From Spironucleus salmonicida (Eukaryota), in the NCBI RefSeq assembly GCF_000497125.1, contig NC_090600.1:951197-1015196 (forward strand): 64,000 nucleotides of DNA, read 5' to 3'. Under the pieces are notes generated by a model that had not been told where the DNA came from, searched no databases, and was given only the letters and a program-made list of their open reading frames with translations. Of this stretch, positions 3,001 through 34,080 are shown piece by piece. Position 1 is the stretch's first letter. Every line of letters begins with the position of its first letter. The position numbers were made by a program, and so were the translations under genes.

Positions 3001-4218
3001 ACTTAAATGTGTATTGCAATTGAACGAAATGTTTGTAAATTTGCAGTTTGTTATTAATTTGCCCATCCCATAATTGCTGAAACTTCCATTTGTAGATCCA
3101 CTAATAGATAAGTTTAGAGATACCATTGAAATTGTTACTTCATCTAAACTATTGAAAAAATAAGCTATCTATTGAGACTTGCATTTTTCCATCTCTAACG
3201 TAGAATTTATTGAAACAAAACTTACCTAAATATTTTTAACATTACTTTCTGCTAAAAGGATTGCTATAAATGGTGTATCAGTCATAGTTAGGGATGACTA
3301 TATTGCAATATTTGAAATATCTGCATTTTCTTCCACTATTTAGGATAACTATGTTATTTTAGTGGCTGTTTTAGAGTTTGACTGTAAGTCTATTGTTATT
3401 TTCAAGTTCTTAAGATTTCCAATTAGCTGCTGGCAAATACTAAAAATAGTAGTATGGGTTAAAGCAGAACTAGTGCTAATGAAAATCATTATTTCAGATT
3501 TACTTATAGTTTTTGTGATTTAAGAAAATCCATAGATTAGTGAAATTTCTCGCCCAAAAATTTTAACATTAATATTTAATAAATCAACAAATGTTTACAT
3601 TGATACTCCATAAATTTATGTCGTTTCCATGGCAGTAATTATTACAGAAACTGGAAAAGCACCCATAAGGTCTTAGCAGATTCCAAAAATTGTAGATGCC
3701 ATAATAATACGTATATTAACTGATAATGATGTAGATTTTAGACTTTAAATACTATTTGATATACCATATACGTTATATTGTGTTTTCAATAAAGGAGTAC
3801 ATATAATAGAGAAATCGCAGCTTCTGAATTAAGATTCTATAACTTAAGTAAAAAATGTGATCTCGGCTAGATTAGTAATTTTATCACTTTGAATTTTGAA
3901 AGAAGTGTCTTAAAATGAAGCTGTACTGAGTTGTTCCATAACACGGAAAGAATCTAAGATATCAATTTCTACAGAGATTCTTATATTACTAAGAATCCCA
4001 GTAAACTTTTAAATTAACATGCCACCTCCTGGTATACTTAAAATTGTAAGTGTATTTCTAGCTCCTGAAAGAGTTCCGTTAAAAAAATTAACTATGGGTG
4101 AGCTGAAAATTGTTAGACTGATATCTTTTTCTATAACAAAATTATCATTTTACATAGTATTAAGTTGATAAAAACCATCGCCGTCAGAAAGTATAATCAA
4201 ACTAAAAATAACTAGCAT
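1..4218 (-). pseudogene. Copy 1 of the giant cysteine-rich membrane protein gene; 3' part outside the window, frameshifted relative to copy 2
   Basis: ATG at 4218 (MLVIFSLIILSDGDGF...). Single-base deletions relative to copy 2 near 22, 2465 and 2718 break the frame. They could be assembly errors. Confidence 0.7.
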
Positions 4219-6465
4219 TTTCTATTTCAGTTTAATTATGTTGATAATATCCATTTATTGATTATTGCAAATTAATTAAACTATAAAGAAAATTTAAGAT
4301 ACTATTATTATTGCATATTAGAAAATTTTATAACTTATAGATTTATTATAGAGTTGAATAATAATTAATATGTATTTAAGACTCTTTTTATTATTGATAA
4401 TATAATTAAATATAAATTATTTATAGGCTAGCATATACAATTATTTTTGAATTATAGAATAATACTTATATAATAGCTTAAGTTTATTTTTATTTTTATA
4501 ATTATACACATATATTCAATTATTTCATACTTACATAAAATCAAGTATAAAATTATTATTAACTAATAAATAATTATAGATTCTAGATATTTATATTTAT
4601 TAAGAAAAGTATACTTACCATACCAAATATAATTTAATTCTAAGAGCTCTATATAAGTAAATAAGATATAATAATATTTATTTAGAAGTAATATCTTAAT
4701 AGTTTATATAAATTTATATCAACTAAACATTATAATACAGTAATATATATTATTGTTAATTATCAAATATTATAATAAGACAAACAATGATTATTTTATT
4801 AATTATTCGTCATGTTAAAATTTCAAGATTATACATCAAGCTATATAATTTCACATGCGATACAACAAATTTAGTCGCCTTCTGCATAGTTGTAGATTCT
4901 AATAGCCAAGACAATAATTTATTAATTTGATATGCAAATTCATTTATGTAGTTTTAATTAAAAATAGCTAATTCTATTGAAATAATACTTTAAATCACCA
5001 AATATCGAGTACGACATAATCTAGCAAATTTTAACATTCACCTCTTGATCCGCTACAATATTTAGGAATATGCCACTTATCAAAAGTCTGCATACGAGTC
5101 TTCAAGCAGATCACAACAGATATTCGTTCTTATATGTAATGAATCATCTCTATTTTAAGATCTGACTTCAAAAATTCTTGATTTGTGCACCATTGGATTT
5201 ATAGGCGATAACATAACTTCAATATATGAATTTGTCTAGCGCAGTGCATGTTTTGACTGATGAATGCTTCAGAAATAACTATCTTGTTGCTAGCTTCTTA
5301 ATTTTTCATGTTGCCGATAAAGTAATGCTACCAAATATATTGTGTAAGCATATTTTGTGCAAAATCCACAGAATTCTCCAGTCTTCCACACGCAGCTTAA
5401 ATTCGCTCTACGATCTCTTATTGACAGTAATTTCTATGCCTAAACATAGATCTATCAATAATCTAAGCCACGAATACCAACCAATGCCATATTGCGCTAT
5501 CTTGCAATGAATAAAATTGACTCTATCACCAACTACTCGTATTGCTCCAATATCAACCAAATGCCCTAATAACGCACACAACTCTTCACAGCAAGAAATC
5601 CGCAATAATTCCTATAACTTTCCTAATTACCACTCCAGAAACTAAAACTGAATTCTGTACAATTGATTATATTACTTAAAATTAGCTAATTTTCCACTCC
5701 TAAACTGTATTTTTCAGTATTTTTTTCGCGCTGGCCCCCGAAACGAAGCTGGAAAGTCCAAATTCAGTGAATTTCAGACCGTCTGAAACCAATTTTCCTG
5801 ATTGTAAAACGCGAAATTAAGTGCCCAAATCCAAACATGTTCAAAACGCAATGTGACGTTTATTTCGACATTCGAATGCGAGTTATGGACATAATGGGAT
5901 ATGATGTTCGTTTTGCAGAAATTTTGACGATTTACCTTACAAAATTGATTAGAAATGTCCCAGAATTGGTCCATAAACTTGAATATCCTCGCTAAAATCA
6001 ACTTTCAGCGCTGGAAGTTTTGCGGAAATTAGGCGGTCGGGAGAGCTGTTTTCGGAGTGAAGACAACCTCTATAGTAGTTTTTAGAGTCTTTCAAGACAT
6101 AGCTGGTGAAAAATGCAGAATTTCGGCACAAAATAACCTTTGAAACAGCTGCGCAAGTTAGTTTTCGCAGTGAGCAGAGGCTCATAGCGTCTTGCAATTT
6201 GCGTCCCTTGCAATTCGCATTCTAAGCCAATACGTGCGGGTTAAATTGGTATTGGGAGCATTTGCGGCCTAAAACGTCTATCGCTGTACCGCACCATTTG
6301 CGAGCCTTTATGAGTAAAAGTCGCAACAAAATGATGCGTTCTGAATATGCTAAACGAGTAAATGGTGAGTCCGGTCAGTGCTCAAAACCAGAGACTTTGG
6401 GGCTAAAAACCAGCAACTGGGAGTCCCCAAGAATGCAAAATTTTCGTTTAGGTTCATATGGTGAT

Positions 6466-6985
6466 TTAAATCGTTTAAAATTTAATTTTTAAATCGTTAA
6501 AACCTCTAATTTAATCCCTTAAAGGATGTAATTTGAATTTTTAAAACAATTAAAGACGTAAATTTCAATCGTTAAAGATTCTATTTATATATCTTACGGG
6601 TTCTAATTTAAATCACTTAAATTGCTCTAATTTTAATTTCTTAAATACTTTAACCCATACCTTTAAATACTTTAATCCATACCATTAAAGGCTCTAATTT
6701 GTATTGCTTAAATGCTGTAATTCCAATCAATTAAAAGCTGCAACTTAAACCCTTAAATACTTCAATTTGAATGAATAAACGGCGATAATTCAAATAACTT
6801 AAATCGCTCTAAGTTGAATTGCTTAAATATTCTAATTTAACTGTTTAAAGGTTCTAATTTGAATGACGTAAAGTCTTTAATTTAATCTTTAAAGGCGTAA
6901 ATTGTAATTAATTAAAGACGTAAAATCAAACCCTTGAATACTCTAATTCCAGTCAACGTAAATGTCTCTAATTTTTAAATTTCTC
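6466..6985. repeat. Degenerate AT-rich minisatellite, ~22-24 bp unit (roughly TTAAAggcTCTAATTTGAATcgc), about 20 units
   Basis: Recurring ttaaa...taattt phasing. Copy 2 (~30180-30675) lacks one whole unit at its start. Confidence 0.75.
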
Positions 6986-8701
6986 AAATAGGTCTAATTC
7001 ACACCCCAAACGCTATTTTTTCAACCCGCTAAACCATCAAATCCGTCCATTCCACGCCCTTTAAACCCCAATTCTACCTCAAACTCCCCCAAACCATCAA
7101 AAAGTCTGCTACCAAACGATTTCTGGAACCCCGCAAATGCAATTTTCCAAACCTCTCAAAGTGCTTAAACTGCTAAAATGCACGCCAGGAGCGCGAAATT
7201 AGCCTCTAAATTTAGTGCGTTCTGAGTGGAAAATTACGCGTTTTGGAGATTTTCCAGTCAAAAAATTATGGCGAAATGCGATTTTTCTTTACTGAAAATA
7301 ACGGAAAGACCGGACGGGTAATAGCAAAATTATGAATTTTTAGCACTATTTAGAAGGTTCGAAAATGGAGAATAATTGCTGAAATCGGTGCGCGGGGGCT
7401 TCCCGTTTCGGTTTTTAGGGGTAGCGCAGGTCTGGAAGGAAATACTGATTATTATATGTTGAAATGTTAGTGTGAGATTTGGGATGGCAAATTTGGGGGA
7501 TGTAGAGAAGGTAGAATTAGGGAAGTCGTGGAATGTGGGAATGGGGTGGAAATGTAAGTTTTGTGCTTTTAAGGGTGGGAAATGGAGGTGGGGCGCGATT
7601 CTGTAGTGGGTGGTGTAATTGGGGGTGGTGAAAGATTGCGTTAATTTTAAAGTTTAGGGTGGAATTTTATGGGGGAACGAGAAGGGATTGAATAGGGGAA
7701 GTTTGTTATGAATAATAAGGAGGTTGGGGTTAATTTTGGGTTAACATTTATTGGTAGTGAATGTCTAGTAATGTGTAAAGATAATATAAATGTGCTTAAG
7801 AGTAATAATAGAAATTTATGAATTTTGGTATTTTTATATCAAGCTAATAATTGATTTTGTCATTTTTTGATGTGGGTGTTTAATTAAATACTACTCAACA
7901 GGCTAGTAGTAATAATTATGTTACAATTATATATGCTCCATTATTATTAAAACTAACTGATAAAAAGGAAAAACTCTAAGTTGAAGTGGTGATTTTGAAA
8001 ATAAAAGATTATATGGAATAAATAAGAATATTAATTTTTTCTGAGTAAACCCGTAATACTAAAATTAAAACTATTTAAAAGTGTTAAAAATATCCTTTTT
8101 AGTAAAAGGTTAATATTAATAAAATATAACACACTATTACTGACTGGATCTCTAAAATTATTAAATTTTAAAATCTATTACTTTATGTTAACCTAAATCT
8201 TTATTTATTTTGGTTAGGTAAAAACATAATTTCGTATTTTTATAGATTTTCAGATTTATATATCAGTTTAGTGCATATTATTAACATTTAAATTGTTGTG
8301 TTTTTGTTACATAAACCAAAACTAAAGTTTATATATATAAATATATTATATATAATCGTTCGAATAAGTATAATTAGAAATAATTATGATGATTATTTAA
8401 AAATTAGTTATATTTTGAGAACTGTTTAAAGTCAGTTACTCTGTCTAAAAATAATAACATGTTTTATTATACGCAATAAGATTTTATATTTAATAACTAT
8501 CTGTTTTAATAATATATACTTACCTCTGTAAGTTAGTAATATTATCATTTTATTATTTTATAAGTATATATAATATAATGTTTCTCTTCCCATTATGTTA
8601 TTATATTAATTACTTATAAATCTAATAATTGAAACTATTTAAAAACCAAAAAATTGTAATATCTATTTATATTGTTATCACAATGTACATAACAATTAAA
8701 A

Positions 8702-9629
8702 ATGATCGTTGTTGTAAAATGTACGGAATCTAAAAATACGTGCCCTGTAGACAATTTTGCCCAGCACCGCCGAAGAGGAAATGGAATGTCTAGACTGCAC
8801 TGATGATAAAATTGAATCAACTCAAGGGTGTAATTGTGTGGAGAAAGTTGCAATTAAAAGGTGCAAGGAATGCAATGAAGGATAATGCACAAAGTGCTTC
8901 GATAAGTCATTTATGAAAGCAGATGGCTCCTGCGAAGACTGTAGTTTTAACTGTGCTACCTGTGAGACTACCTAGGATAACTGTACCTCATGTAAGGCAG
9001 GATTTATATTGGATATGTAAACAAAAATGTGTGAAAGGACCTGCAAGTCCCACAAAGAATGCACAAGCAAGAATAGTGGTTACTGTGACTTCTCAGTGGG
9101 ATAATGTAAAGCTTGCTCAGATGGTTGCCGCTCCTGTGCTTCCAAGACATTTTGTGCCTAATGTAATGACTCAGAGGGAAAACCAGTACTTACTATAGAT
9201 GGTACATGCACAGCTGCTTGTGCTGGTATTTAAGATGGAAATTACTGCAAGAACGGAACTGCCACAAAATGTGAAGGTAGCATTACTTCAGAGTGTAAAT
9301 GTGGTGAGAAAAAGAGCTGCGCTACTTGCAATACTGACAGTTCAGCTTGTGAGACATGCCTACCGAATATTACTAAAACTGCAGATGGTGACTGTAGTGA
9401 TTGTGCAGAAGGATACGAATCTGTTGGGCTCTTGTGCATATCAACATCTACATTGGAAAGTAATGGTACAAACCTTGGCGGGGGTGCAGTAGCAGGAATA
9501 GTAGTTGGAGTTCTGGTAGTTCTAGGAGCTGTTGGAGGAGGTTTGACCTACTATTTCATCAAAAAGTCAAAAACATAGAAGTTCTAAGCAGGTATGGAGG
9601 AAAGCACATCGAAATAAGCTCCAGAGTGA
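8702..9629 (+). pseudogene. CRMP1/VSP-like cysteine-rich membrane protein, copy 1 with two 1-bp deletions near the 5' end
   Basis: CxxC repeats, C-terminal TM GAVAGIVVGVLVVLGAVGGGLTYYFIKKSK, ends in AGTGA. It has gacaatttt and gcaccgcc where copy 2 has gacaaatttt and gcacccgcc. Confidence 0.75.
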
Positions 9630-10121
9630 ACATAATTTTATGGTAAACATTGAATCTCAGAATAAGAAGAATTTTGCATAAATTTAAATATAATGTATGA
9701 TTTTTACCTTACATATCTAGATAAACTTCATTATTTTATGAAATAATGGAGAATAAGTGCTAATTAAATTATCTTAAATAAAACTTTAATATAACATAAT
9801 TATAAATATAATTAATTAAACTTGCGATAAAATTTAATAAAAGGACTAAATTACGGTGTATGAATAAGTAAATACACTAAATATTATCAAATTTATCTAA
9901 TAATTATGATACATCTGATATGATAATTCAATTCACCTATGTTAAGGTAAATTAGATACTTTTTTGCATAAAACGACATTGATCCATGTGATTAATATTA
10001 TATGTTCTACATGAAATTCGATGAATCAAGGCGAGTACGAGACACTAAAAATGTTATGGGAGTTATATGGAATTTAGTTAGAAATAAGCAGAATTAGTGA
10101 TATTTCGTCGTTCCACAAGAA

Positions 10122-10388
10122 ATGAAAAACATCAGTCCAAGGCACCTCTTTATGAAGAAGTTGTCTCTTAAAGTATTACCATATATAAGGTAATAAAAAG
10201 TTAATAATGCCTCATTATCACCTGTTAGTCCTACACGATAGCATCATACACATAATATTTATAAAAATAAAAAAAGATATGACTCTCTAGATATTAGTCA
10301 AAGTAATATAACAGAATCATTAAATGATCCTTATTCAGAGAGTAGTGAAATTTCTATTTGGGTTATAGACTTTATTTTTAAATAATGA
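10122..10388 (+). CDS. Short hypothetical protein of a local small-ORF family (MKNISPRHLFMKKLSLKVLPYI...)
   Basis: Open in code 6. Homologous at protein level to the ORF starting at 36702 (SLKVLP, P(V/I)SPxR, DSLDIS). Confidence 0.45.
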
Positions 10389-12637
10389 TATTTTTGTGTG
10401 TAGTAATATTGAATATTGCTCTGAAGTGATTAAAATAGTGATAAAATACGTTACTTAATATAATTTTATTAAATAAGGCAATTCTACACTACTATCAAGT
10501 TAAATATACCTCTTTTAACTACATAGTAACATATAAATAATTATTTACCTGTTAATTGTAGTATTCATCCTGATACAACCTCAGTTTTCATTATAAAATA
10601 AATTACGTTACTACTAGGTAAACTTTACATATTAGAGTAAATAATTTTCCTTAAAGGCAAATAACACATTCCAATTTTCATAAAATGCTACTTATATTAT
10701 GCGACAGCTCAATACGGAAAAATACAAAATATCTAACAGTTAGCTAGTCTCACTTTTTAAATCCCAGACGCGGTTCATTATTATTTTAACTAATCATTAT
10801 CCTAAATTATTAACTGTATATATGTTTATTTTATATTTTATTTCTAAAAACAATACACACTAAATTAAAATTGATGCGTATACCCTTAATTTTTCATTTC
10901 TATGAAGTTAAAACGTAAATTTTAGCTAATATATAATATGAAAGCCCGATATAAATTAGCATAAACTTATAGAATAAAAAATACGTACTTTTGAATGTTA
11001 TGTTCTGCCATACTGGATTTCAACCAAACCAGAAATTTACATTGCATTATTATATATTATTATAAATATATTTTCTGAAAATCTGTTTTTAAACATTTCA
11101 CTTCGAAACATCCCAACCACAACATAAAAAACTATTTCTATTCCTTATTTTTACTATTTAGCTTGCAATCTGCTTCAAATTTACTAAAACCAATTTTTAT
11201 TATATTATATTACATTATTATACCCTAATAATTATTAAATTCCGCTCCTAATTAAATATTTTTATCACATCATCAAAAATCCCGTAGAATTCTAATCAAT
11301 TTTCATTATTATTATATCATAATATCATAGTTTCTAAAAATTTAAAACCGAATTGCACCATCAAGTTTACCATCTAAAGTTTACATTCCCCGCAATATCC
11401 AAAACTTTCCATTTCGCAATTCCTCAATTTGCAGACCATCGCCATTTTCGATTTCTACCAAATTTTCGATCTCAAATTGAGAAACAATTAGACTTTTCGC
11501 TTCCAAAACGCAAATTGCGGCCGTAACGTTAAAATGCGAATTTTAGAAAACTGAAATTGCGAAAATTCGAGCCGCCGAATGCGTTTCTCTTGTCAGCTCG
11601 AAGCTGCGCTAAAGAATTTTTCTGGGGTTCAAATTTTACTTAATTTGAATTTTGACGTCGAAATCGGAAGAATGGCGCAATTTGGCGATTTGGGGGCTTA
11701 ATGGTTTAGTTTTTGCACTATGTAATAATAATCATTATTATATCAAATTAGAGGTACTTGCTAGTTTCAAAATTTTGAGAATGGGCGAAAATTTGGTAGT
11801 TTGGGTTGAATGTGTTAAATAATGAAAAATAATGCTAGTTCACATTTTTAGAGTCATAAGGTGTTAAGGGCGCAGAAAGTAATTACTCGTATCGGATTAA
11901 TCGATTGCTTATTGAGGAAATACGTAACTTAGGGGTTGATTGCGTGAATATTTACTGTAAATGGGTTTTTGCAGCTGTTTAGCAAACTAGCTATCTTTTA
12001 AATTATTATTTCATAATATAAGTATATTATGCTCAAGAATGAGAATGAATGTTAATATTTAGTAGTGTAGTGTTTCAGTAGATATTAGCCCGTCGCTAAT
12101 CCGCAGTTTAGCAAAATGGCCTTCAAAAATTTTTCAAAACATAAATCGCAAAGCGGTTATTATTTATGAACAATTTAAAGACGAATTGCTAACGGAATCG
12201 AACGGACGAATATAGAAATTCTCTATTTCTAATCAGTAGTTGGTACGGGGAGAGCATTGCACTCTTTCACATACATCAAATTTTTTAGTATAATAAAGTA
12301 TATAAATTATATACTTTAGTAGTTAGTCAACCCGCCTAAACCCCCGAAACGGCAGTCGGCCATTTCAAAATAATTGCCATGCATTATTATATACATTCCA
12401 CAAATATTAATCGATTTAACGATATATGAACACATAGTTCAAACACATCTAAAGAGGACAAACAAGACAAAGAACCTATAGAAAGACAAGAAAGGCATTT
12501 CGAGCATTTAGAAAGGGCAAAACAAAATAGGGAAAACATAGCGAGCAGTATAAAAAAGGGAAGAAACTCGAAGATATAAATATATATCAAAAGTATTATA
12601 TATAAAAATTAAGCATCTATTTTTTAAACTATAACAA

Positions 12638-15600
12638 ATGAGCCTTAACCACAACTTGATTCTCAAGAAAACAACACAATCGGTATAAAATAAGCTTAAC
12701 GCTGATCTGTAGCCATAAAAGGATAAATATAAAAAGATTATTAAAAACTTTTAAATATTATAAACAAAACTAAACGAAGTAGCTATGGATAGCTTATCCG
12801 AAGATCAAACTAAAGAGCTAAAGAAATAAAACAACGAATATATAGAACCAATTTCAAAAAGATGGATTATAACTAATTTGAAAGACCTTACAATTACATA
12901 AATATACTAGACAATAAAATAAAAGCTAATATACAAAACCTTAAAAACGAAGCATTTAGATTCGACAACCAATTCATTACGTAAAGATGGTACACTGAAA
13001 AGGTTAGTTAACTAAGAGCTTAAAATATTAAATATGAACAAATGAAAACATAACTTAAAACAAGAATCCAAAAAGGATTAGAACTAAGAATGTTAAATTA
13101 GCTTAATCACGAAATAGATAAGATATCAAAGTTACAAGGTGTAGCACAAATACAAGAATTCGAAATTAGTTATGATAAATATATTAACGAAAACGATAAC
13201 ATACTTGAGACCATAGGGAAGGATTTCAAATTGGATCAGATGGATTTAAAATACATTAACTCCTTGGAATACTTTAAAAATAATTTTAACAGTAGCATAC
13301 CCTTTGAAATCATAACGGATACACCTTACCTGGGTCTATATTACAGTAAGTCTAATTATTACGACACCTATGTGGTTGCAAATATTAGTTATATTAAATA
13401 AAACGGTAACATAATTCCTATAGGATTCATAATTTAAAATTAGATGTCAAGTCTATTAGAATCAATATTTGAAGAAGTGATAAGCGACGGAGAGAAGTAT
13501 TTTAATAGAGATGTTAGCAGTACAGATGTAATGCTTTTTCAAAATATTGGTGTCATAAACATATAGGTCCTTTTTCCTGAATAAATAGTATAAAACGTAT
13601 TTAAAGATAAGGATGAGTTTTATGTATCAGAAGTAGATCCTTAATATGGCGAAGGTTATTAAATAGGATTGATATGTAGAAATGTAGGCCATGGATATTA
13701 AGGAAACGCAACACTAGAGTAAAAGTTTAAAGGGTCTATATTCTTTGTCAAAAATAATCACAACACCTGTCTATGCACGGCCATCATTGCAGTATTCACC
13801 AAGAAATCAAAAATAGTTGATAAGAAACATATCTTTTAGTTAGAAGGGACACCATATGCAATAGCCACAATAGCATTTGATGCAGGTAAGGCTTTACAAA
13901 TGTATTTAGATAAGCCCTCAGACAAAACTAAAACTAGAAACTAAAACTTATACTACTTTACGCATATGCTTATAAATGAAATCCGCAAAGATGCAGAGGG
14001 GTTAGCAGATACAGAGATACTAATAAGAGCAGAAAGGTATTTGAATATAAAAAAAGTAGCAGAAGTTAATAAAGTAAATGATTTGTATCCAAATTCAGAA
14101 ATGGAGCTTTTATTAGTTTTATGCAATGGACATTACAATGTCATAATGGATTTTAAACAATGAATAAATACAATGAACCCAATGCACAAGGCATATATTT
14201 ATTGCTATCAACACCAAAACCTATCCCATAAGAAGAACCAATGTTATGAATGCACACAAGCAGACGAAGTGGCTACTAAGTATTATTGTACGTTTTGCAA
14301 CTACAGTCATGTAAGATCAAAAAACAACAAAAGTTATTAATGTTAAAACTGTAAAATATAGCTCCATAACACACCCAATAGCAAATGCTTAGAACGACAT
14401 TAAAAGAAATGCGAGAAGTTTTCACCATGCAGTCATTGTAATACGACACACAACTCATCACGCAAATGTAAAACGTAAATTGAATATGAAGGATAGTACT
14501 TCAAATAAGGAAACCTTTATGATGAATAGAAATCATTTCTAACTCGGGATATAGAAAGCCTATTCGAGAATCTAAATGAAGATGATGATAACTATTCAAA
14601 GTATTCAATGAAGCACATCCCCTTTTTAGTAACATGGATTATAAACATATACGATAAGGAAATAAAACCATACGAAGAGATGGATCACTTTTATGATAAC
14701 GCACTTAGATTAAAAGAACCAGGCAACTACATCACTTCAACAGACGATTTGCTAATCAAATTTATAAGGCACATGGAACCAATAGCTAAGAAATATAAGA
14801 TAAAAGACTTCTATGCACACAATGCAGCAGCATATGACAAATACTTATTATTAGCAGCTATAATGAAAGTGAAAGAGCAATTCGAATTCGAAACATTGAT
14901 TTCAAACAACTACCTATTGAATTTGAAAATAAATGGAATGTCGTTTAAGGATTCATTTAGACTCATAACTTCACCATTAGCAAAACTAAATAAGGAATTG
15001 GCCCTTGGCCTTGAAGTTGGAAAACAACTATAGTCATACACGTTCTTAACAAAAGATATATTTGATTTGTATATTTAAAACGGAGGGAGTCTTAAATCAA
15101 TAAGTGAATTAGTAAAAGAAGGCATTCTATAACAGAAACACTTTGATAAGCTAAGCTTGGATGAGTTCAATTAATATGCTAGCTACTATGATCACTTAGA
15201 CTTCATTGATTAGTATATTAATTATTGTATTCAAGATAGCTCATTTTAAGCAAAGCTCTTGTGAAATGGGTAGAAGTATCACTAAAGGAATAGGGTGTCA
15301 ACAGGCTCAACTATTTAACAGCATCAGCAATGCCAATGAACCTATTCACACACCACTGCAATACAAAGATATAAATAGGTTATCACGATCTAAAACATAA
15401 CAAATCGAAATGCGAGTATCGCTTAGCACATCTAACTTTGAATGATAGTGGAATGATAAATAAACTTTTAGGAACCAAGTTTACCAAGATAACAAATGTA
15501 CTCTACAATCAACGATTCTTAGATACAAGATACAATATTGATATAGTATTCCATGGTGACACGGATGGCGCAACTAAGAAGTATGGATTAGAATTGGATG

Positions 15601-17457
15601 GAGTGTTCTATCATGGGTTAAAGGAATTAAAGCAAACATATAAGTATTATAAAGTAATGCAAGAAAGGAAGAGGCAGCATCAAACGAAGGGATTACGCTT
15701 AAAAGATAGAATGAATGAAGGAGTATTTGAAGACATCTTTCATGTAGCAGACGTTGAGTTTATTAAATTTGAATAGGACAACGATATCAAGATAGAGATA
15801 CCTCCGTAATACAACATAAGCAATAGATCGATATTACAAAGAGGAAGAACTGAATGCTACACTCATTATAGAGAAATCGATAGACCAAACGAAAAGCTGT
15901 ACGGAATTGGCTTCACATCGCTTTACCCTTCAGGCATGGTATTTGGAAACTTACCTTTAAGAGATTTGATTGTTGGAACACAAGCAGGAAGCTTAACGTA
16001 TACCAAAAGTATTGATTCAAAAGATATAGCAAAGTATACGTTTAAACTTGATTAAGCCTATATTGATAACTTAATTGAATACGTTAATAACATACCAAGA
16101 TAGATTACAGCAGAAGAAAGGCTTCAATACTACTTAGCTGGATGTGATAAGATGAAACGAGTAATATAAATCAAATGTTAGATGCTACCACCAAGGGATT
16201 TAAAGTTCCCAGTGTTAGGATGCCATATTTGTAACAAGTTGCTATTTCCCTTATGTAGAACATGCGCAGAATAGTAATGTTTGTATGTTAACAATCACAA
16301 ATCATGCAAAGACAATAATGAATAAAGATATCTAACAGGGTTTTGGCATGAAACTGAATTGATAAATACATTATACGAAGGTTATAAGTTCAGGGAGATA
16401 TACGAGACACATACTTACTAAGTATCTACTTTTAATGATAACGAATATTAAGGAGGAAACTTCATTAATTCAGAGATGTTCAACAAGACCCTGAACCCAG
16501 ATCAAGATGTTTATAAGGATGAAGATGATCTAAAGCAATTAGCAAATGATTGTGACTTTGATTATATTTATAACGATGGCATGCATCAATCAAATAAAAG
16601 AGTGAAGGTGAATATAGGTAACTTAAACTAAACCAAGGAGTAAAAACATTCTATAAACTATTGCTAAATGCAACGTATGGTAAGACAGGCTAGAATGTTG
16701 TAATACCAACGGAGTCGTTTGATAAGGGTGAATTACTTTTTGACATGCATGACGAAGAGCTGCATAAGAATTATAAAATTGAATTAATTGAATAAGTATG
16801 ATTAAGAATACTTATGCATACGAAGAAGAGTTGTAATAAACATAAAGAACCTAATCAAATGCATCCTTGGCAGGAACGATAACAGCAGTAGCAAGAACTA
16901 TGCTTAATACATTAATAAGATATGTAAATGATGAATTAAAAGAAACTGTCTTATACGCTGATACAGATTCAGTTTACTGTGTTTTAGATAGAGTAAAGTT
17001 CCCAAACCTAACTTCAGTAACCTTCAAGAATACATACTCTTGCAAATGCGAATAGAAGCTTGATCCAAATGAATGGGTTTGTATAGGTCCTAAGTCATAT
17101 ACATACACAGATGGAATCAAATACGCTCAAAAATCCAAGGGTATCACCTTAGATAAAACATATATTATTGAAGTAGAGGAAGGGAAGCTTGTTCATGTAT
17201 TCGATATTTATAAATCAATATTATTTGATTAAGTATAATTTAATGAGGATGATAGTATTTAAATGAAAGACTCAAACGCTGAGACAAAAGTAAAACAGGA
17301 GTTAAACTATATAAGAGATAATAAAACATATAACATATATACGCATACAAGATATAAAGTAATTAGATAATAGTAATAAAAGAGGCTTATTGATTTTACT
17401 TCAAGAGCTGATTAGATATCAACATTGCCTTTTGGATATGATAAAGTATATGCGTGA
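12638..17457 (+). pseudogene. Protein-primed family B DNA polymerase (Polinton type), disrupted
   Basis: Code 6 translation gives ExoI TRDIES (D at 14548), ExoII AHNAAAYD (~14815), KDSFRL, ExoIII YCIQD (15223), RGRTE (15840), motif A YGIGFTSLYPSGM (15900), LLFPLCRTCAE (~16240), motif B KLLLNATYGKTGQ (~16655), motif C YADTDS (16954), GPKSY and C-terminal TLPFGY. In-frame TGA at 14161. Frameshifts near 12870, 15240, 16640 and 16800. Confidence 0.93.
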
Positions 17458-17673
17458 TTCATGTAATCCATTTTGGATTCCGATTCACTTTAGCGAATCA
17501 CTTTAGTCGTTCATTTTTTGTATTAATAAAACAGCATTGAAAGCAAAGCTTCCCGGACGCCTTCAGTACACATGGAGTACAATATCCAATCAGACGAAAT
17601 TCAGTTTTTGATATGAAAAACAAAAAAATACTCGGACGCAACCGTCCGACCTCAGGGGGTCTAAATTGAAATA

Positions 17674-18653
17674 ATGAGTTACGGTTATTTTGGACTTATG
17701 GGTTCAGCAGGAACATGCAAGACGTCTTCGATTAATAAAATAAATTAAGTATGTTAAGATTAAAGTAAACTATCAAAGTATAATTTAGATGACTTTCATT
17801 TAAATAACTGAACTATAACTCATACGTTCTTCTTAAGTCCAACTATCGATTATGATTAAATTTATTAAAACTCAAAAAGCAAAGACAATAGAATTAATAT
17901 ACCATTTGTTGATTCGAACGGAATGACATCAAAATAAAAGTTATTAATGTTATGTTAAGAATTATAGAAAATGAAAATCATTATAAATCTATCATTGATA
18001 ATATACGATTAGATACGAACTACTTTAAAAGATAAAGGAATTAAAAAGAAATTAAAAATAGAGATCAAAAACTATTATTTCAAATTTTCAAAAACATACT
18101 TTCACAATTCGAATGGGTAAAGTAATAGTATTAATAATGTTTAGTTTTATAGAAAGACTGTTTAGGTGATGATGTTGATTAGTATATGTAATTGCTGTAT
18201 GAATAAATTGGATTGCGCTATAATAAATATTAGATACGAAGATAAAAAATAGTTTTATTATTAGATGACATGCGCGGGAGTTCAGTATTTCAAACTACTA
18301 TTGAATCTTATTTCTATAAGCTAATTATTTAAAGAAGACATCTTGGAATTTGGGCAACCATTTCATGTTTACATTCTATTAAGATACTGTATGGATCTTT
18401 TAGATAGTTGTTTACAGCTTTCTTGTTAATAAACGGTCTCAAGGAAGAACATATAAAAGATATCTTTGAGGATATCGGAAGGACAAGAAGTTAAGAATTC
18501 GAATCGAAATAGTTTATTGAATTGTATGATAGATCCATTGGTTATTTTGAAAACGACTATTCGAAGAGAGGTTAATTCAAATATAGTTTTGAATATATAA
18601 TTATTTAACCAGACCCAATGATCTTTATAAACTTTGATAAATAAGTTAAGTGA
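17674..18653 (+). pseudogene. A32/FtsK-HerA-like DNA packaging ATPase, disrupted (true start may lie ~140 bp upstream)
   Basis: Walker A-like GLMGSAGTCKTS, TFFLSPT, Walker B IVLLLDDM (~18250-18273), arginine-finger motif QRRHLGI (~18330). In-frame TGA at 17809 and at least one frameshift. Ends AAGTGA. Confidence 0.82.
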
Positions 18654-18715
18654 GTATCTGTTAATTTATCGTATATTTAAAAGCTAATGTACTCAATTTT
18701 TTTTAAGTTCAAGAA

Positions 18716-19123
18716 ATGGTAAAGTTCATAAATGTAAAACTACTGATTGAAGAAAACAAAAGAAACGATTTCGCTTTCAGCTAAGTAATAGTAAACAATG
18801 AACCCATAAAAATAACTAAGGAAACTAGTACTAAGCAGAAATTTGAAAGTAATAAAGTATATAACAAAGTTGAATAAATAAGATTGCTTAATAAAGATAA
18901 ATAAGTAATAGCTATGCTACCTGAAGAACTTGCACAATAGAACTATTATCATACTCCTGATGTACTTAGCACTAAGCCAGCCTATAGCAAGTATATAATA
19001 ATTAACAAGATTGAAACATGTCAGTTTGGTACATAGTATAAACAAATCTAATATTTATTAGATGAAAAACAAGTGAAAGCTATTTAAGCTATTGAGCCAG
19101 CTTCAAGAGAACTATATTTCTGA
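18716..19123 (+). CDS. Hypothetical protein of the viral element (MVKFINVKLLIEENKRNDF...)
   Basis: 135 codons open in code 6, preceded by a T-tract-TAA-N9-ATG motif shared with other element ORFs. The TGA may be premature. Confidence 0.55.
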
Positions 19124-19236
19124 TCCAAAAGGATTTAAGCAAAAAATAAAAACCAAATAACTATGGTCGCCTTTGGGCTTCCACTTCTTAAAGATCATAA
19201 CGTATATTTTAAAGAAACTTTTTTTAATAAACAAAA

Positions 19237-19799
19237 ATGGATCGATAAGCAATAGTTAAAGATCAAGAAACAAAACCAACTTACAAAGAAGCGATATAGG
19301 TTATGTAAAAGTAAGATAGCTTAGAAGCCTACTCAAAAGAAGTTATCAAGAGTATTGAAATACTTCCAAAAGCTCTGATGTTGAACCTCCATCTAAAGTA
19401 AACTTCAGCCAAACCAATTATAATAACATGCAATCGTCAATATTAAAGTTTGAGGATGATCGTAACAATACTAAGTTTGAACATTATAGTAAAATACTAA
19501 TAGTAATATATATTTCCTTAGAACTAACAGACAGACGGTTGTATGACATGGCTGAATAAGTTGTAGCGTTATCAGAGTAGTGTTTCAAAGGCAATAAATA
19601 GGGTGACGTTAGACTGTACATCCCGATGATTATGTTAGATACGATTCTGTAAGAGAACTAATCAACTTCATCTAAAGGATGTAAGACTTATTTATAGGAA
19701 TTAATTAATAGAGTTTTGAAAAACAATAAACGGAAGGACCTTATTAAATTAGTTGAGAATCTAGTTTACATAGTAACTAAAACGTTTACATGGTGTTGA
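19237..19799 (+). pseudogene. Hypothetical protein of the viral element (MDRQAIVKDQETKPTY...), frameshift near 19370
   Basis: Coding-like in two consecutive frames, with the same upstream T-tract motif. Confidence 0.45.
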
Positions 19800-21672
19800 A
19801 TGTGAAAGCGTTATATTTTTTAAATGTTAATTAACTATAATGAACCATATCTGAACAATTCGATTTTGCATAATGCAATCCAGCCGTCCAGCAATCTCTA
19901 GGGTGATCGCTTTCCGGCCGGATCACTTATATTAATATTCTATATTTTTAATCTTATTGTACCTTTAATCTTCCTCAACTAATCCTATTAGTAAGTAATA
20001 CATAGATAAAGTATGATATTGTATTCTAGAATTTCAAAAACGGAAAGCTATGGTTTATGGTCGCAAGACTGGCATAAAAAATGATCTGACGAGGTTGAAA
20101 TAGGAGATTGCCAGATCATACTTTTAGCATGGGTTGTTTACTACTTATGAATTGCATGTATAATCATAATATACTTTTTTAAAATTCAAAATAGAAATTT
20201 ATCTTGTAAGAATAGTTAAGAAAACATTAGAATATTAGGCTTATGTAAGGAATGTATATACTGAATAAGCAATATATTTACAATATACTTATTGCGTATG
20301 AATGTACATTAAATTATATAAAAATATTTCAAATAAAGTTTAGTAAAAATATATAGCCTCGAATTTACTTTTAACTATTACTCCTAATAAGTAATTGACA
20401 TACTTATAATTTCATTATAATCTTCCTATAAAATGTCTATTAAGTATACTTTAACAGCTTTTAATTCAGAATCGATATAGTATTAGTATACAATTAGAAA
20501 ATATTAAAGAAATTTTAAATTAAGAAATATACCGAGATACTTTTACATTAGAACATGTAAAAAACTTTAAATTATCTCTTATTCCTTTTACGTTTCCATT
20601 AGTGTAACTCTAATTTAAAGGATAAAATAACGACATTTAATAAAACATACAGAAAGAGTAATTTAATATTAGTTTCATTATTTCATAGAAATAGAATGAC
20701 TAGTATCGTATAACCCTTATAAATATTATAACTGAAATATTATCATACGAACCATATATTAGTATACAACATCGTTTACTAACTGCCTTATCTTTTATTT
20801 AGTTATTTATATAATCATATTAGTCTTTAGCTGTCTGATTTTCTCGTTAGTAAAATTAATATAACTTTTAAATAGTCTTAATTAAATGTAGTATCAAGAG
20901 TATATCACATAGTAGTTACGATAATTTTAAAATTACAATTAAATAATTATTGAAAAGGAATAAAGTAAAAATAATATGTTAGATTATATTTTTATAAGAT
21001 ATTATAGTCTATAGTTATGAAGAAGAATTAAACAACAGTAATGGTAATTTTCAACTGCAACTGTTTTGTTTGGCAAGATAATACAGATAATTTAACAAAT
21101 ATTGATTATTTCTAAATAAAAATTAATATTATTAGGGTTTTCAATATAGTTTACACTTATAATAATTCAATCTATATATTTCTTTTACTAGGAAATATCA
21201 ATATGATTTATGAGGATTGTTGTTAGCTTTTAAGCTATTGTTGATCCGATCAATGTTATTTCAGTAATAAGTAATTATCTTTTTATAATATAATATACTA
21301 TTATAATTTTTAATCCGTATAATGAGAGTACTTTACGGAAACCAATTTATTTTTATACATGTCTGCTAATAGTTATAATAATGAAAATAATTTATCTAGA
21401 TTATTTGATATTGTAGATTTTAACTTAAATACCTATTAGTCTGATGAAAATAAATATAGTATATTGAAATGTAGAAAAGTCAACTTTCGTCTCTAATCAT
21501 TAAAATATCAGGGGTATTTTTATTTAATTGTTTAAAATTTAATGTATTAGAATTATAAATCTTAAAGCATCCTCTTTTAGATAATAAAGATTATTATAAT
21601 GAATTATTACTCCATCTTCTACTATATTGCAATAAATAAAGCCTACTATACGTACAAAAATTAACATTATTT

Positions 21673-24600
21673 TCACTTAAATTGTAAAGAACTCATATTT
21701 CGTCTTATATTTGGGTCGGTGGTAATTTTATTCTAATTAATCTATTCTGATTATAGCTGAAGTTACGGTATTTCCTTATTATTTTATTTTGCAGGCAACT
21801 TAGTAATTAAAGTGTCATAATTTTTAAGGTAAAATACTTACTTATTAGAGGTAGGCGTAACAACCTACTCAGAAATTTAAACAGCAGTAGTAGGCATTAG
21901 TGATGCTGCACTTAATTATTTTTACGTGATACTTCTAGAATAGATATTAAGCTACATATCTTTTAAAAGTTAATTATGGGTCGTAGGTGCACTTTTTTAC
22001 TAATTATAATTTGTCTTGGCTGGTTTAAAAAATTCCTTGTATTGTTTTCTGGATTTAAAAAATGCTTTTACTCCAGTAATAATTTTAGATGTATCGGAAA
22101 TTTGTCTATTTCTTCTATGATCCCAATACGAACTTTATATATTGAAATGTAATAAACTTATAAAAACAATAACTAATGAGATTGCTTATAATATTATTAC
22201 AAGCAATGAAATTGTATAATTATTATCTCTTGCTGTTTTAAAATCTCCAACCGCGGTAATAAATTATGCCCATATTGCTGAGGAGATGAGGTTTATCCCG
22301 AACTCTACTGCAGAAATGTGCATCATAACGACAATATTAACAATATTGAAGAATATTTACGTAAATAAGCTGGACAGAAAAATGTCATATTCTAGAATCG
22401 ATTTTATTATCTCGCTTGGGTATGTTAGACCGACCATGCTATTTACCATAAAGGATGCCAGGGAAAGTCTCCCGATGGCACCGACCTCGCCGTATCTCCC
22501 GAGTATCAGGTCGAACAGATAGAACTGGGCACCATTTAGCAGTATTGCAATGCTGACCATGATCTGCCCTGATATGATATTCCAGCTGGAGGATTTCGAG
22601 AAATACCCTAACTGCTCTGTACCTTAAATCGCAAATAGGATCTATGCGAATATCGGCAGCATGATTGCGATGAACACCGCCAGCTTCTGCTAAGATTTGA
22701 AGCGGAAGCCAGCCAGAAATACACACATGAAGAGCGTCACGAGCGGACCGGCCAGCTTGTAGATTTGCTCGCCGAAGTCATGCACCACGTCTGACACCAC
22801 CTGGTACTGCACGAAGTGAAACGAAAGCTCTAGGAGTGCCGCCAGGATGAACAGGAAGAAATGGGATGGGAGGTTGTAGAAGAACTGCGTGTACGTCGGA
22901 ACCGCCAACAGGAAGAGCACGAGCACGAAGGGGACCATCGAGAAAATATTGACTGCGATCTACATGAAGAAGTCGTTGATGTAGACGTCCTGGATAGCGA
23001 TGATAATGGCAAGGGCCTGGGAGAGCATGACGAATATCAGGTGCGGCCCGATCCGCTTGATTTGGCGCTTGGCATAGACAACTATCTTCCGCTTCCCGGC
23101 CTTCGATAACCTGAGAATTACGATTAGGAGCACCAGCAGGAGCAAGAATGAGAGCACCGGGACGGCAATCACAAAGGTCATGTATCCGGGGGAGATCCGC
23201 TCCACCACGCACTGATCGACCACTAAGATGAACCTTGGCCCGCAGTAGTCGCACTCCGCCACGCCCATCTGGTTTCGGAAGCACACCCCAGTCGGGCTTT
23301 GCAGCAGGGGGCAACAGCAGCGCGAGAAGGCCTCGGTATGACAGTCGCAGCTTATGTACCCCTGTGTGCACTCTGAACAGACCGCTCCGCCCCAGCCTTC
23401 CTAGCACTCCCCGCAGAACAGCTAGTTGGCCGTAGCTATGCAAGTGCCGCGCAGCTAGTCATTCTCCGGTGCAGTAGCCGTGCCGCAGTTGCCTTTGATA
23501 TGCCCCAGCCCGGGCCTGCATACGAGGCACTGCTGTATGTTCATGTCGAAACTAAGACAGGGCGAATCGGCGCAAGTGACGAGGGTGGCGGTCTGGAAGC
23601 ACTCGCCTGGGAAGTTCACGGCGTGTTGCTTGCACTCTGGGCCGAAGGTGGCTTCGACCGAGCACATCGTGCAGTTGAACGACTGACGGTGCGGACCGCA
23701 CGTTGGACAGTAATAATCTCCGGAACTGTCTTTCCCGCATGCGGTAGATGACGCCTACAGGCAGTACCCACCCAGCAGCGAGAAGATGTCCTCGCACCGG
23801 AAGCAGTTGTGGGAGAGTGCGTGCCCTAGTGAGCAGGAACCACACTAAATAGAGTCGCCCGAGTAGAAGCAGCTCCCCTGGGTGCAGTCGGCGCACGGTA
23901 TCAGGCACCGGTTGACGCCGATGACGACCAGCTCGTCAGCGGGCAGTATGTTGGAGCTGGTGTAACCGGGCTGGCAGTCGTTGCACTCGCCAGAAACATC
24001 GATTTGGTACCCAAGCGAGCATGTGGTGCACAGCGGCATGGCGTAGTTGTACTGGCACTCCTGGCAAAAGCTGTCTAGCGAGTCGACCGCGTTCGTGAAG
24101 CAGACCCCAGTGGCCACGTCGTTCCGGTAGTAGCAGCTTCCCTCCCTTTCCAGTTCTGAGCACTCATCGCATGAGGGACCCGCGTACCCCTTGTAGCAGC
24201 TGCACATTACTTATCCCTGGAGGGTGAAACAGTCGCCGTTGGGGTTAGGGATCGGCGGGTAGCACTTGTTCTCGTGGAGAATGAAGCCGAGGTAACAGCT
24301 GCTGCAGAAGTACGAGGGTCCCTGGTCGTAACACTCTCCAGCGCACTCCGGAAGTACGCACCTCGCCAGACACTGCTGACCCACGAGGACCTTCCCCGGG
24401 AGGCAGGAGGCGCAAACCAGTGTTCCAGCCCCGTTGCGGTAACACCCGTCGTCGGTCACCTGCACCTAGCACGCACCACCTGCGAAGATAAATCCGTCGA
24501 TGCAGGCATCGCACTGTTAGCCTGTAAACGAGCCGACGCAGCTGGAGCACCGGACGCCGCCAGGAGTGTAGAAGCAGGTCCCCTCTGCACACGTAATGCA

Positions 24601-27600
24601 CGGCTTTAGGCACCCGCCTAGGGCCGCCACAAACCCGTTAGCAGCATCGCAGACCAAGCACCCATCCCCCGTGTATCCTGGAAGGCAGAACCCCGCACAT
24701 ATCAGGCGCCCGGACGCATCAACGTAGCACCGGTCTCCCTGGCATTTTTCGCAAAGCTCCAAGCACTCGGCCCCAATGTTTATGAAGCCGGCCCAGCACC
24801 CCTGACAAGACGGACCCTGGAAATTATCTTTGCACGACGAGCAGACGATGCTACCGTTCTCGTAAAAGCAGTCTCCATTGCAGCCGTCGCATCTCACCAG
24901 GCACTGACCCAAGAAGCTACCGGTCCCCGCTTAGCACGAGTCGCACTGCTTTCCAACCGCATATTGGTTGCAGCGGCAGGTCTAGTCGTGCTGGCAAACC
25001 CCGTTAATGCAATTAGTTGGGAGGCACTGAAAAATACACTGAGCCCCAACAAGGAGATAATCCTGCGCGCACGAAAAGCAAATGGTCTCCAGAGCTATTT
25101 TGATGCATTTGCCATGTTCTATTTTCTCATCTTCAAGATTATGGCAAACCTCTCCATATAACCATTTATCCGCTGGACACTCATCGCACCTATTTCCAGC
25201 AATGCCTGCATTGCATGAAAAGCACTTAATGTCACATTTATCTGGAGGTAGCATGCATTCCTAGAGATAATAGCAGTCGCCAGTTAGGCATTCTGCACAT
25301 TTTTTCAAGCAGAGCTCGCCATCTGCCTTAAAACCTGAATCACATTCCTGGCATTTGGGCGCTTTCCAGCCGATCTTACATGCAGAACATTCCCATTCAC
25401 CACCATTACCGCTTAAATACACGCACCCAGCACCTTACGCGCATGCTCCGGCCAGGCAGACATTTTTACAGCCTTTATCGCTGCTTTTCGTACAGAACTG
25501 ACAGCTTATTCCACCGAAGTGATCTCCACAGTGGCAATCCCCGTCCTCGCATCGATTGCCATTACATTCCTGAGAATTTTTACATACAAAACCATCACAA
25601 ATACCGTCAATACTGAAATAGCCATCAGAACAAACGCAAAAGTTGTCAAGGACTTATCCATGGAAGCACTGAGATTTTTAATCTCCAATACAGGTTGCAA
25701 ATCCTGTGCTCGCATCGCAACTAGTAGCCCCACCAATGCAGAAGGTGCAAAGGTCAATCTCACATTTATCACCGGAATAACCTGGTCTGCAAACACACCC
25801 AAAAATAGCACTACATGTACTACCTTTATTGCAAAAATCTGGAGGACATGTGTGGGTTTCGCAGTTCTTCCCACTGTAGTCTTAGTTACAAGTTAAAATT
25901 TTGCCATCGAAGATGCCGTGGCATTCACTATAACAAAGATTTTCTTGATTTTTAATATTTATTTGGACGCGTAGTAGTTCTTGTTGGATGAATGGTGGGA
26001 TCTCAGGACTGGCGAGCTCCGCGAGGGAGGCTATTGAAACAGCAAAAAAATCTTATAGGCGCACCATACCATCATTGCGGAAATCGACTATCCACTTTCC
26101 AGTTTTTAATAGTTTGGTGACACCGGGACCTGATTACATTTCTGCTTTGCTGATTTATTGAGGGCTACTGATTTTCCCGGTACCTATCAGAATATAAACG
26201 TTTATCATATTGCTGTTTCGCTCGGTGGATATGATAGGTACATCGCTTTAACAGAATATCTCTGACGACTACTCAACAAAATTGATTATTTCATTATCTT
26301 GCGCTTCCTTTATCAGTAACACACATTTTTTGTTATTAGGGCTTATTAGTTTGAAATTGGCAAGCATGTTAATAAAAAATGATTTTTGCGCAGTTTGTGA
26401 AATTCCATTTATTATCCCTTATTATTTAAGCTTAATTTAACCACAAATAACCGCGAAGTTGAAGCTTGTTTATTATATAAGGTCGGATATTCCGCTAAAT
26501 TTATTAATTGAGACTTAACTAATTTCAATATTATTCTAAATAATAATATGGTCAATGTTTGCCTTTATCATATCTTATGCCAAGCCGAATATAACACTTT
26601 TTTCTACATTTACCCCATCTGATATAGTAATAAAATTGCAAAATGACATATTTAACATAAACATAGCTTCAATTTTTAGACTTAATGGATAATAATTTAC
26701 AGCAGAGGCTGCATAACTTAAATGTGTATTGCAATTGAACGAAATGTTTGTAAATTTGCAGTTTGTTATTAATTTGCCCATCCCATAATTGCTGAAACTT
26801 CCATTCGTAGATCCACTAATAGATAAGTTTAGAGATACCATTGAAATTGTTACTTCATCTAAACTATTGAAAAAATAAGCTATCTATTGAGACTTGCATT
26901 TTTCCATCTCTAACGTAGAATTTATTGAAACAAAACTTACCTAAATATTTTTAACATTACTTTCTGCTAAAAGGATTGCTATAAATGGTGTATCAGTCAT
27001 AGTTAGGGATGACTATATTGCAATATTTGAAATATCTGCATTTTCTTCCACTATTTAGGATAACTATGTTATTTTAGTGGCTGTTTTAGAGTTTGACTGT
27101 AAGTCTATTGTTATTTTCAAGTTCTTAAGATTTCCAATTAGCTGCTGGCAAATACTAAAAATAGTAGTATGGGTTAAAGCAGAACTAGTGCTAATGAAAA
27201 TCATTATTTCAGATTTACTTATAGTTTTTGTGATTTAAGAAAATCCATAGATTAGTGAAATTTCTCGCCCAAAAATTTTAACATTAATATTTAATAAATC
27301 AACAAATGTTTACATTGATACTCCATAAATTTATGTCGTTTCCATGGCATTAATTATTACAGAAACTGGAAAAGCACCCATAAGGTCTTAGCAGATTCCA
27401 AAAATTGTAGATGCCATAATAATACGTATATTAACTGATAATGATGTAGATTTTAGACTTTAAATACTATTTGATATACCATATACGTTATATTGTGTTT
27501 TCAATAAAGGAGTACATATAATAGAGAAATCGCAGCTTCTGAATTAAGATTCTATAACTTAAGTAAAAAATGTGATCTCGGCTAGATTAGTAATTTTATC

Positions 27601-27933
27601 ACTTTGAATTTTGAAAGAAGTGTCTTAAAATGAAGCTGTACTGAGTTGTTCCATAACACGGAAAGAATCTAAGATATCAATTTCTACAGAGATTCTTATA
27701 TTACTAAGAATCCCAGTAAACTTTTAAATTAACATGCCACCTCCTGGTATACTTAAAATTGTAAGTGTATTTCTAGCTCCTGAAAGAGTTCCGTTAAAAA
27801 AATTAACTATGGGTGAGCTGAAAATTGTTAGACTGATATCTTTTTCTATAACAAAATTATCATTTTACATAGTATTAAGTTGATAAAAACCATCGCCGTC
27901 AGAAAGTATAATCAAACTAAAAATAACTAGCAT
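21673..27933 (-). CDS. Giant (~2086 aa) membrane protein: signal peptide, beta-rich ectodomain, EGF/furin-like Cys-rich repeats, TM helix, DMT/SLC35F-like multi-pass domain, cytoplasmic tail
   Basis: The minus-strand ORF-track fragments starting at 26841, 25254, 24912, 24465, 24207, 23667, 23286, 22938 and 22560 share one frame and join through TAA/TAG. ATG at 27933, first TGA found at 21675-21673 in AAGTGA context. Not every codon was checked for internal TGA. Confidence 0.88.
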
Positions 27934-33789: not shown

Positions 33790-34080
33790 ATGAAAAACAT
33801 CAGTCCAAGGCACCTCTTTATGAAGAAGTTGTCTCTTAAAGTATTACCATATATAAGGTAATAAAAAGTTAATAATGCCTCATTATCACCTGTTAGTCCT
33901 ACACGATAGCATCATACACATAATATTTATAAAAATAAAAACAGATCTGACTCTCTAGATATTAGTCAAAGTAATATAACAGAATCATTAAATGATCCTT
34001 ATTCAGAGAGTAGTGAAATTTCTATTTGGGTTATAGACTTTATTTTTAAATAATAATATTTTTGTGTGTAGTAATATTGA
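33790..34080 (+). CDS. Short hypothetical protein, duplicate of 10122-10388
   Basis: Same ORF. A TGA/TAA difference extends it by 8 codons. Confidence 0.45.

Follow-up and report, generated by a model that had tools for sequence, protein, structure and literature searches.

A 64,000-nucleotide stretch of the Spironucleus salmonicida genome (assembly GCF_000497125.1, contig NC_090600.1, forward-strand positions 951,197 to 1,015,196; hereafter the window) probably contains an incomplete and dead copy of an element of the Polinton/Maverick type (polintovirus-like). A replication gene, encoding a protein-primed family-B DNA polymerase (pPolB), and the remains of a packaging gene survive from it in the nuclear genome of this hexamitid diplomonad. 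The coding signal is co-oriented on the plus strand between 12.8 and 18.65 kb, with the pPolB gene first and what is left of a packaging ATPase gene after it. A preliminary description of this DNA, based on the letters alone, had called it an endogenous Polinton-like virus (PLV). The Polinton/Maverick kind is retained here; what we find is a dead fragment without capsid, integrase, protease or terminal inverted repeats (TIRs), and a pPolB with a vOTU domain does not make it a PLV in the narrow sense. The term virus would apply by family membership.

The predicted polymerase is of the DNA_pol_B_2 type, an assignment that rests on homologs that pass the Pfam DNA_pol_B_2 model and on conserved motif blocks. 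An exhaustive HMMER search with the middle piece of pPolB (15210-16928) returned 1119 proteins at E<=1e-3. The top four matches were S. salmonicida proteins with 52-88% identity, followed by a protein of Hexamita inflata and one of a spider. The closest relatives of the window pPolB are fragmentary S. salmonicida proteins (82-88% identity), and all named distant matches of the middle piece are animal Maverick-type polymerases. DNA_pol_B_2 was present in each of the seven distant matches scanned (938-1370 aa), and the alignment shows GGRTE, xFTSLYPS and FPLCRTCAE blocks. In the window, ExoI-III and motifs B and C look intact, and a PHROGs search matched only DNA polymerase families, on the C-terminal polymerase piece (8e-9).

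The open reading frame (ORF) upstream of the polymerase, ORF A, listed as unknown in the preliminary description, is predicted to be the polymerase's own N-terminal part with a vOTU-like Cys/His domain. ORF A and the polymerase lie in the same frame with one TGA (14161) between them, and we assign ORF A to the polymerase gene because the intact single ORF of a metagenomic relative, contig L014 (Ga0316608_1000392), aligns across this codon, which we consider decisive. The L014 ORF forms a single high-scoring segment pair (HSP) with the window from 13669 to 15237, across TGA 14161, and then continues in three further frames to 17433 (summed E 1e-177). Paralog P0156 has a Cys at the position of the window TGA and its frame continues, whereas paralog P0157 terminates there like the window. 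A Cys and a His motif follow each other in the ORF A family as they typically do in OTU proteases; the vOTU-like Cys motif reads NDHNCLYAAI in paralogs and is mutated in the window. When the ORF A family was compared by hhalign with 24 long Polinton pPolBs, the match had an E-value of 6.9e-6 (7.4e-5 for the vOTU part alone, 0.3 for a reversed control), and the Cys and His motifs with the following Zn-finger region were placed on the N-terminal region of these pPolBs. The L014 ORF also matched P0157, a paralog of ORF A (E 2e-16), and the two sequences line up at both the Cys and the His motif. Based on these alignments, a vOTU-like cysteine protease domain is predicted N-terminal to the polymerase.

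Downstream of pPolB, the sequence at 17.6-18.65 kb probably represents the remains of an A32/FtsK-type packaging ATPase, split over two frames and with a degenerate Walker A. We built a profile from six ATPases adjoining pPolB genes in Polinton-like loci of IMG/VR, three of which pass Pfam Pox_A32, and compared it with the full set of 1134 pieces obtained when the six-frame translation of the window is cut at TGA. The piece at 17913-18650 ranked first (E 0.0012), followed by a piece at E 0.17, and a host ABC ATPase scored 0.73. By hhalign, the same piece gave E 3.3e-4 against 0.75 for the reversed control, and the alignment is colinear over Walker B, RRH, an Arg position and a C-terminal block. 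A phmmer comparison with the ATPase of one IMG/VR locus, L010, gave E 6.9e-5 (134 queries x 177 targets). The frame ends in AAG TGA at 18651, and the earlier remark that this AGTGA is of host type was borne out, as four of seven distinct host genes end alike; the polymerase lacks AGTGA. Of the 1047 TGA triplets on the plus strand of the window, only 62 have AG before them, so that the share among host gene ends fits a stop-overlapping 3'-end signal. Two plus-strand frames are open across the same 700-800 bases, at 17812-18621 and 17913-18653.

Both genes are readable only in a variant code in which TAA and TAG (TAR) encode Gln and TGA is the stop, as the preliminary description had stated. Along a homology-defined path of 1552 codons, TAR occurs in frame 60 times and TGA is absent from the pieces, whereas 96 TGA fall on the 3104 off-frame positions. 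Both the content of Gln (5.2-6.8%) and the ratio of TAR to Gln (0.54-0.87) match those of AT-rich host genes. In ORF A, 15 of 18 window TAR codons aligned to paralog Gln, compared with 10 of 12 CAR codons; in the middle polymerase piece, the corresponding counts were 10 of 12 and 9 of 11. The Gln of motif B (GKxGQ) is encoded by TAR in both the window and L014, and Gln occupies this position in 45 of the 61 stored homologs carrying the motif. From these TAR statistics, in the window and its relatives, it follows that the lineage evolved under TAR=Gln. Codon usage supports long residence in TAR=Gln hosts and no recent import from a standard-code organism; a recent arrival from standard-code hosts would be impossible, because such genes would be shredded. 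The earlier view of a dsDNA element adapted to its TAR=Gln host therefore stands on codon usage and on its position between TAR=Gln host genes. Standard-code ORF calling does shred the element, as had been pointed out: with table 11, only two ORFs of at least 80 aa overlap 10000-22000, whereas with table 6 long plus-strand frames are open over 12.7-18.65 kb. Table-6 ORF length alone is weak coding evidence, because a TGA-only stop in AT-rich DNA gives long chance frames. The stretch with the series of table-6 frames has a positive AT skew of 0.10-0.21.

Judged from its reading frames and motifs, the window copy is dead and partial, and its pPolB is predicted not to be catalytically competent, as the Asp of motif A is lost and three frame changes fall within the exonuclease-polymerase part. 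The pPolB frame changes at least four times (near 12810, 15237-15243, 16550-16589 and 16792-16798), and in-frame TGA codons occur at 14161 in pPolB and 17809 in the ATPase. In motif A, GIGFTSLYPS, the Asp codon is replaced by GGC. This Gly is common to the window and paralogs P0001, P0002, P0152 and P0153, and Asp is found only in P0003 (52% identical). Since the copies have the motif A Gly in common, inactivation of the polymerase would have preceded their multiplication. Every Spironucleus paralog is annotated as a fragment (141-709 aa); these proteins are public as "hypothetical protein / DNA-directed DNA polymerase", and several lie on another chromosome-size contig of S. salmonicida (1.88 Mb).

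No further component of a Polinton was detected around these two genes. A Pfam search of any frame between 11.9 and 21 kb gave no match to an rve integrase, while control loci L001 and L004 were positive with the same library. Pfam and PHROGs searches of the same frames gave no match to a double jelly-roll (DJR) major capsid protein, penton or adenain-type protease, with the L004 capsid recognised by Pfam DJR-like_dom as control. A phmmer comparison of window frames with the 177 ORFs of 11 IMG/VR loci yielded no capsid-module match. Inverted and direct repeat searches at the element ends for TIRs returned only chance-level AT-rich inverted matches (<=34 nt, 70-85%). None of 203 HSPs from 157 stored proteins fell outside 12.7-17.5 kb, so the window holds no further pPolB or element fragment by this measure. 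Among the sequencing runs listed as containing the element's sampled words there was no RNA run. Of the cluster of pPolB, A32-like ATPase and unknown ORFs originally proposed, the pPolB and, with modest support, the ATPase remain; the upstream ORF merges with pPolB, the frames are broken and the ORFs at 18.65-19.93 kb are unsupported. Two of the three frames in this last stretch contain 10.6-13% Gln, which points to non-coding DNA, and its A-rich sequence is possibly decayed element sequence. The start assigned to the element, 12065, proved to be the breakpoint of a 12-kb segmental duplication, neither an element end nor an insertion site.

The most informative relative is L014. With table 6 its contig contains an intact 1,480-codon polymerase ORF, and with table 11 no ORF of at least 150 aa. 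The polymerase passes Pfam DNA_pol_B_2 with 57 bits, contains 77 TAR and 38 CAR codons with its sole TGA at the end, and keeps the motif A Asp. Its identity is 32-40% with the window over the full length of the gene and 65%, over 104 aa, with a Hexamita inflata fragment (CAL6011515.1, P0006). Hexamita inflata and three metagenome contigs, L014 and the fragments L012 and L013, which are recoded like it, constitute more distant and equally recoded relatives of the window copy. The ATPase profile had no match in L012-L014, and an IMG/VR scan with the diplomonad polymerase alignment gave 212 pattern matches, of which none was confirmed. Beside the L014 polymerase, four long table-6 ORFs of 388, 632, 654 and 498 codons lie on the minus strand at 6754-13994. 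Searches against Pfam and PDB found no relatives for these four, with 13,995 of the 21,641 contig bases covered, and single-sequence hhalign against one IMG/VR capsid protein and two integrases gave nothing convincing (best E 0.0039, 30 columns). That weak match, to an IMG/VR integrase, belongs to the 388-codon ORF, which also has a DxxxxE-like stretch; the 498-codon ORF encodes a repeat-rich, coiled-coil, fibre-like protein. A divergent module for morphogenesis and integration may be encoded by these neighbours.

Several results weigh against the reading of the window as a dead Polinton/Maverick-type copy, or against parts of it. The window pPolB pieces scored below threshold for Pfam DNA_pol_B_2 and OTU, PDB sequence searches with window pieces returned nothing relevant, and an AlphaFold2 model of the ORF A alignment was unusable (pLDDT 30) and gives no fold evidence. 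The N-terminal 300 residues, the putative terminal-protein domain, had no match outside the family. For the ATPase, the support is limited to E-values of about 1e-3 to 1e-4. The Walker-A piece was not significant against the profile (E 7), the distance from Walker A to Walker B is 183 codons compared with 64-112 in the six reference ATPases, no Pfam (including Pox_A32), PHROG, PDB or word-index protein match was obtained for the ATPase piece, and its AlphaFold2 model was likewise unusable (pLDDT 37). Pfam on ten table-6 frames of the element gave no DNA_pol_B_2, Pox_A32, OTU, rve or DJR, and the agreement with pPolB and A32 profiles anticipated by the preliminary description was absent at the Pfam threshold (DNA_pol_B_2, Pox_A32) and appeared in the deeper searches (HMMER, ATPase profile). 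The frameshift sites are A/T-rich with short homopolymers, and single frameshifts could be assembly errors. Finally, TGA 14161 is shared with P0157 and is followed by a Met codon in the window, so that the N-terminal part may be separately translated, as a functional split in place of a nonsense mutation; two sequences bear on this. At 14161-14175, the ATG stands three codons after the TGA in the window, and the paralog with Cys has Ile in place of Met.

Given the position of the frameshifts in A/T-rich runs and the existence of an intact recoded relative in L014, the window could be read as an intact or recently active provirus whose frameshifts are long-read assembly indels. We consider this highly improbable. 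The Asp-to-Gly change in motif A is a substitution and not an indel, and it occurs in five of the six family sequences covering the motif. TGA 14161 is found in a second copy and is accompanied by another at 17809, the paralogs are all annotated as fragments, and the window has no capsid, integrase or TIRs. In addition, the published S. salmonicida assembly is described as indel-corrected with Illumina reads (PMC9509377), which applies here if the window derives from it. Contamination, or a chimeric assembly of foreign viral DNA with host genes, has a next to negligible probability: the element is written in the host code with a TAR/Gln ratio like that of AT-rich host genes, host genes flank it on both sides within a duplicated segment of the host genome, its paralogs occur on another S. 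salmonicida contig, and 56-86% of its sampled words were recovered in eight sequencing runs from two studies.

A capsid-less transposon, a pPolB element resembling a plasmid or a polymerase captured by the host, with no viral past in this lineage and with the "ATPase" as a chance match, would account for the lack of a detected capsid, penton, adenain or integrase in the window, for the four unrecognisable L014 neighbours, and for an ATPase with E ~1e-3 and atypical Walker spacing. We regard it as unlikely, because the ATPase piece is the best of all 1134 against the Polinton-ATPase profile, well ahead of the host ABC ATPase, because its match is colinear from Walker B through RH and Arg to the C-terminal block and is joined by the phmmer match to L010, and because the L014 contig was covered only in part. 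A dead, partial Polinton/Maverick-type copy is thus the explanation that we prefer. In a live member, as predicted from the family, the N-terminal domain of the polymerase would serve as its primer and be released by the vOTU domain, and the linear genome would be packed into a capsid by the pumping action of the ATPase. Both genes were shaped with TAA/TAG as Gln and TGA as the sole stop, in a lineage long resident in TAR=Gln hosts. In the window copy nothing would work, and it would now spread only passively, via host segmental duplications. The positions of these features are listed in Table 1.

Table 1. Features of the element and its flanks (positions in the window)
Feature	Position	Strand	Remarks
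pPolB N-terminal part (ORF A; formerly "unknown ORF"), predicted	12785-14163	+	start Met in one frame; frameshift near 12810; ends with in-frame TGA 14161-14163
vOTU-like motifs	Cys 13753-13785; His 14122-14145	+	within the pPolB N-terminal part
Zn-finger, 3'-5' exonuclease and polymerase part, predicted	14164-17457	+	same frame as N-terminal part; stop TGA 17455
Exonuclease motifs	ExoI 14542; ExoII 14815; ExoIII 15223	+	
Motif A	15903-15932	+	Gly (GGC) replaces the catalytic Asp
Cys cluster	16242	+	polymerase part
Motif B	16664-16693	+	Gln encoded by TAR
Motif C, YADTDS	16954	+	
Possible ATPase N-terminal piece	17617-17811	+	Walker-A-like GSAGTCKT 17701-17724, Cys for the expected Gly; ends with TGA 17809; not statistically supported
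Probable A32/FtsK-type ATPase C-terminal half	17913-18653	+	different frame; Walker B VLLLDDM 18252; RRH 18330; stop AAG TGA 18651
Upstream of polymerase gene, no supported gene	12065-12784	+	homology to paralog P0156 starts at 12723
A-rich tail	18654-19930	+	table-6 open frames; no homolog, no family match
Copy 1 of host segmental duplication: cysteine-rich membrane protein genes and AT-rich spacer	1-12064		
Cysteine-rich membrane protein gene, 2,158 codons	21673-28149	minus	host gene, copy 2 of the segmental duplication

The window consists of GC-rich genes (about 50%) alternating with AT-rich spacer, and its host genes can be read only if TAA and TAG are taken as sense codons. The host ABC transporter gene at 44222-49870, for example, is open only when 33 in-frame TAR codons are read through, and its product matches Pfam ABC_tran at 1e-49. 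Window positions 1-12064 equal 23713-35733 (copy 2) at 98.6% identity, as a direct 12-kb duplication with a start-to-start spacing of 23,667-23,715 bp, and copy 1 ends abruptly on its right side at 12064/12065. An argument that the duplication was proven to be tandem by a period equal to the unit length was dropped, as this equality is trivially true. Copy 2 alone has the large cysteine-rich gene as a single ORF of 2,158 codons; in copy 1 it is split into 2599-4434 and 3-2426. Segments of this duplicated gene (436-860 and 24149-24573) form inverted repeats, 76-82% complementary, with 53978-54400, a region 30-53 kb away; they are probably fragments of paralogous genes from one family. On the minus strand, a GC-rich host gene of 481 codons (54891-56333) is a lineage-specific orphan: in a search of 5.8 billion protein clusters it matched only itself. 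For S. salmonicida, the published assembly is described as comprising nine chromosomes, with a GC content of 33.5% and 19.2% of the sequence duplicated (PMC9509377).

The proposed element is closest in kind to the OTU-pPolB Polintons/Mavericks and adintoviruses ("Alpha" PolB, pfam03175 type). An OTU domain N-terminal to Polinton/adintovirus PolB is described in PMC8502044, and a terminal-protein domain together with vOTU in pPolBs in PMC11071308. With these elements the window copy shares the polymerase family, the order of N-terminal region, vOTU, Zn fingers, exonuclease and palm, and a nearby A32-type packaging ATPase, and its nearest named non-diplomonad matches are animal Maverick polymerases. 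It differs from them in lacking integrase, capsid, penton, adenain, TIRs and the catalytic Asp and in being TAR=Gln-coded, and its middle polymerase piece is only 20-24% identical to animal Maverick proteins over the aligned part. PLVs in the sense of Yutin 2015 encode major and minor capsid proteins and an ATPase, usually without pPolB or integrase, whereas the window copy has neither capsid protein and does have a Polinton-type pPolB.

Diplomonads are a TAR=Gln lineage independent of Streblomastix. In the oxymonad Streblomastix strix (Metamonada), endogenous Polinton-like viruses that use TAA/TAG as Gln have been described (PMC10120064); compared by description, they too are integrated Polinton-type elements of a metamonad in the host's variant code, read as a sign of long association. 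They belong to a different host order and were found via capsid genes, whereas the window copy has none. For Giardia intestinalis, the Fig. 6 legend of a 2015 study includes a pPolB in the Polinton pPolB tree (PMC4642659), which by that description is likewise a Polinton-type pPolB in a diplomonad genome, in a host with the standard code. For Hexamita, a paper of 2024 refers to PolB BLAST hits (PMC11296320). Together with the public Spironucleus paralogs, these reports make the earlier suggestion of a possibly undescribed element, with no DNA virus characterised from diplomonads, too strong. In the literature on Polinton/Maverick or viral elements in Hexamitinae we found no description beyond that BLAST-hit mention, and supplementary tables may list diplomonad hits. 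What is new here is the host group, stop-codon-reassigned diplomonads, for a known kind of element, and not a new kind of element.

The practical lesson is that standard-code and Pfam-threshold screens overlook such copies. The window copy is a functionless fossil by our reading, and the lead of most interest is its intact recoded relative L014 with its unrecognisable neighbours. Tentatively, and with more doubt than confidence, we raise the possibility that a living polintovirus-like lineage infects TAR=Gln hexamitids, both the fish pathogen Spironucleus and free-living Hexamita-like cells, with the window copy as a fossil and L014 as an intact member; the neighbours of L014 would then code for a module of very divergent capsid and integration proteins. 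If true, no DNA virus lineage would have been linked to Hexamitinae earlier, and Polinton-type viruses would be seen for a second time, independently, to follow the stop-codon reassignment of their hosts. The findings in S. salmonicida would extend Polinton/Maverick-type elements to stop-codon-reassigned diplomonads, in a family that has been TAR=Gln-coded long enough for TAR to stand at conserved Gln positions.

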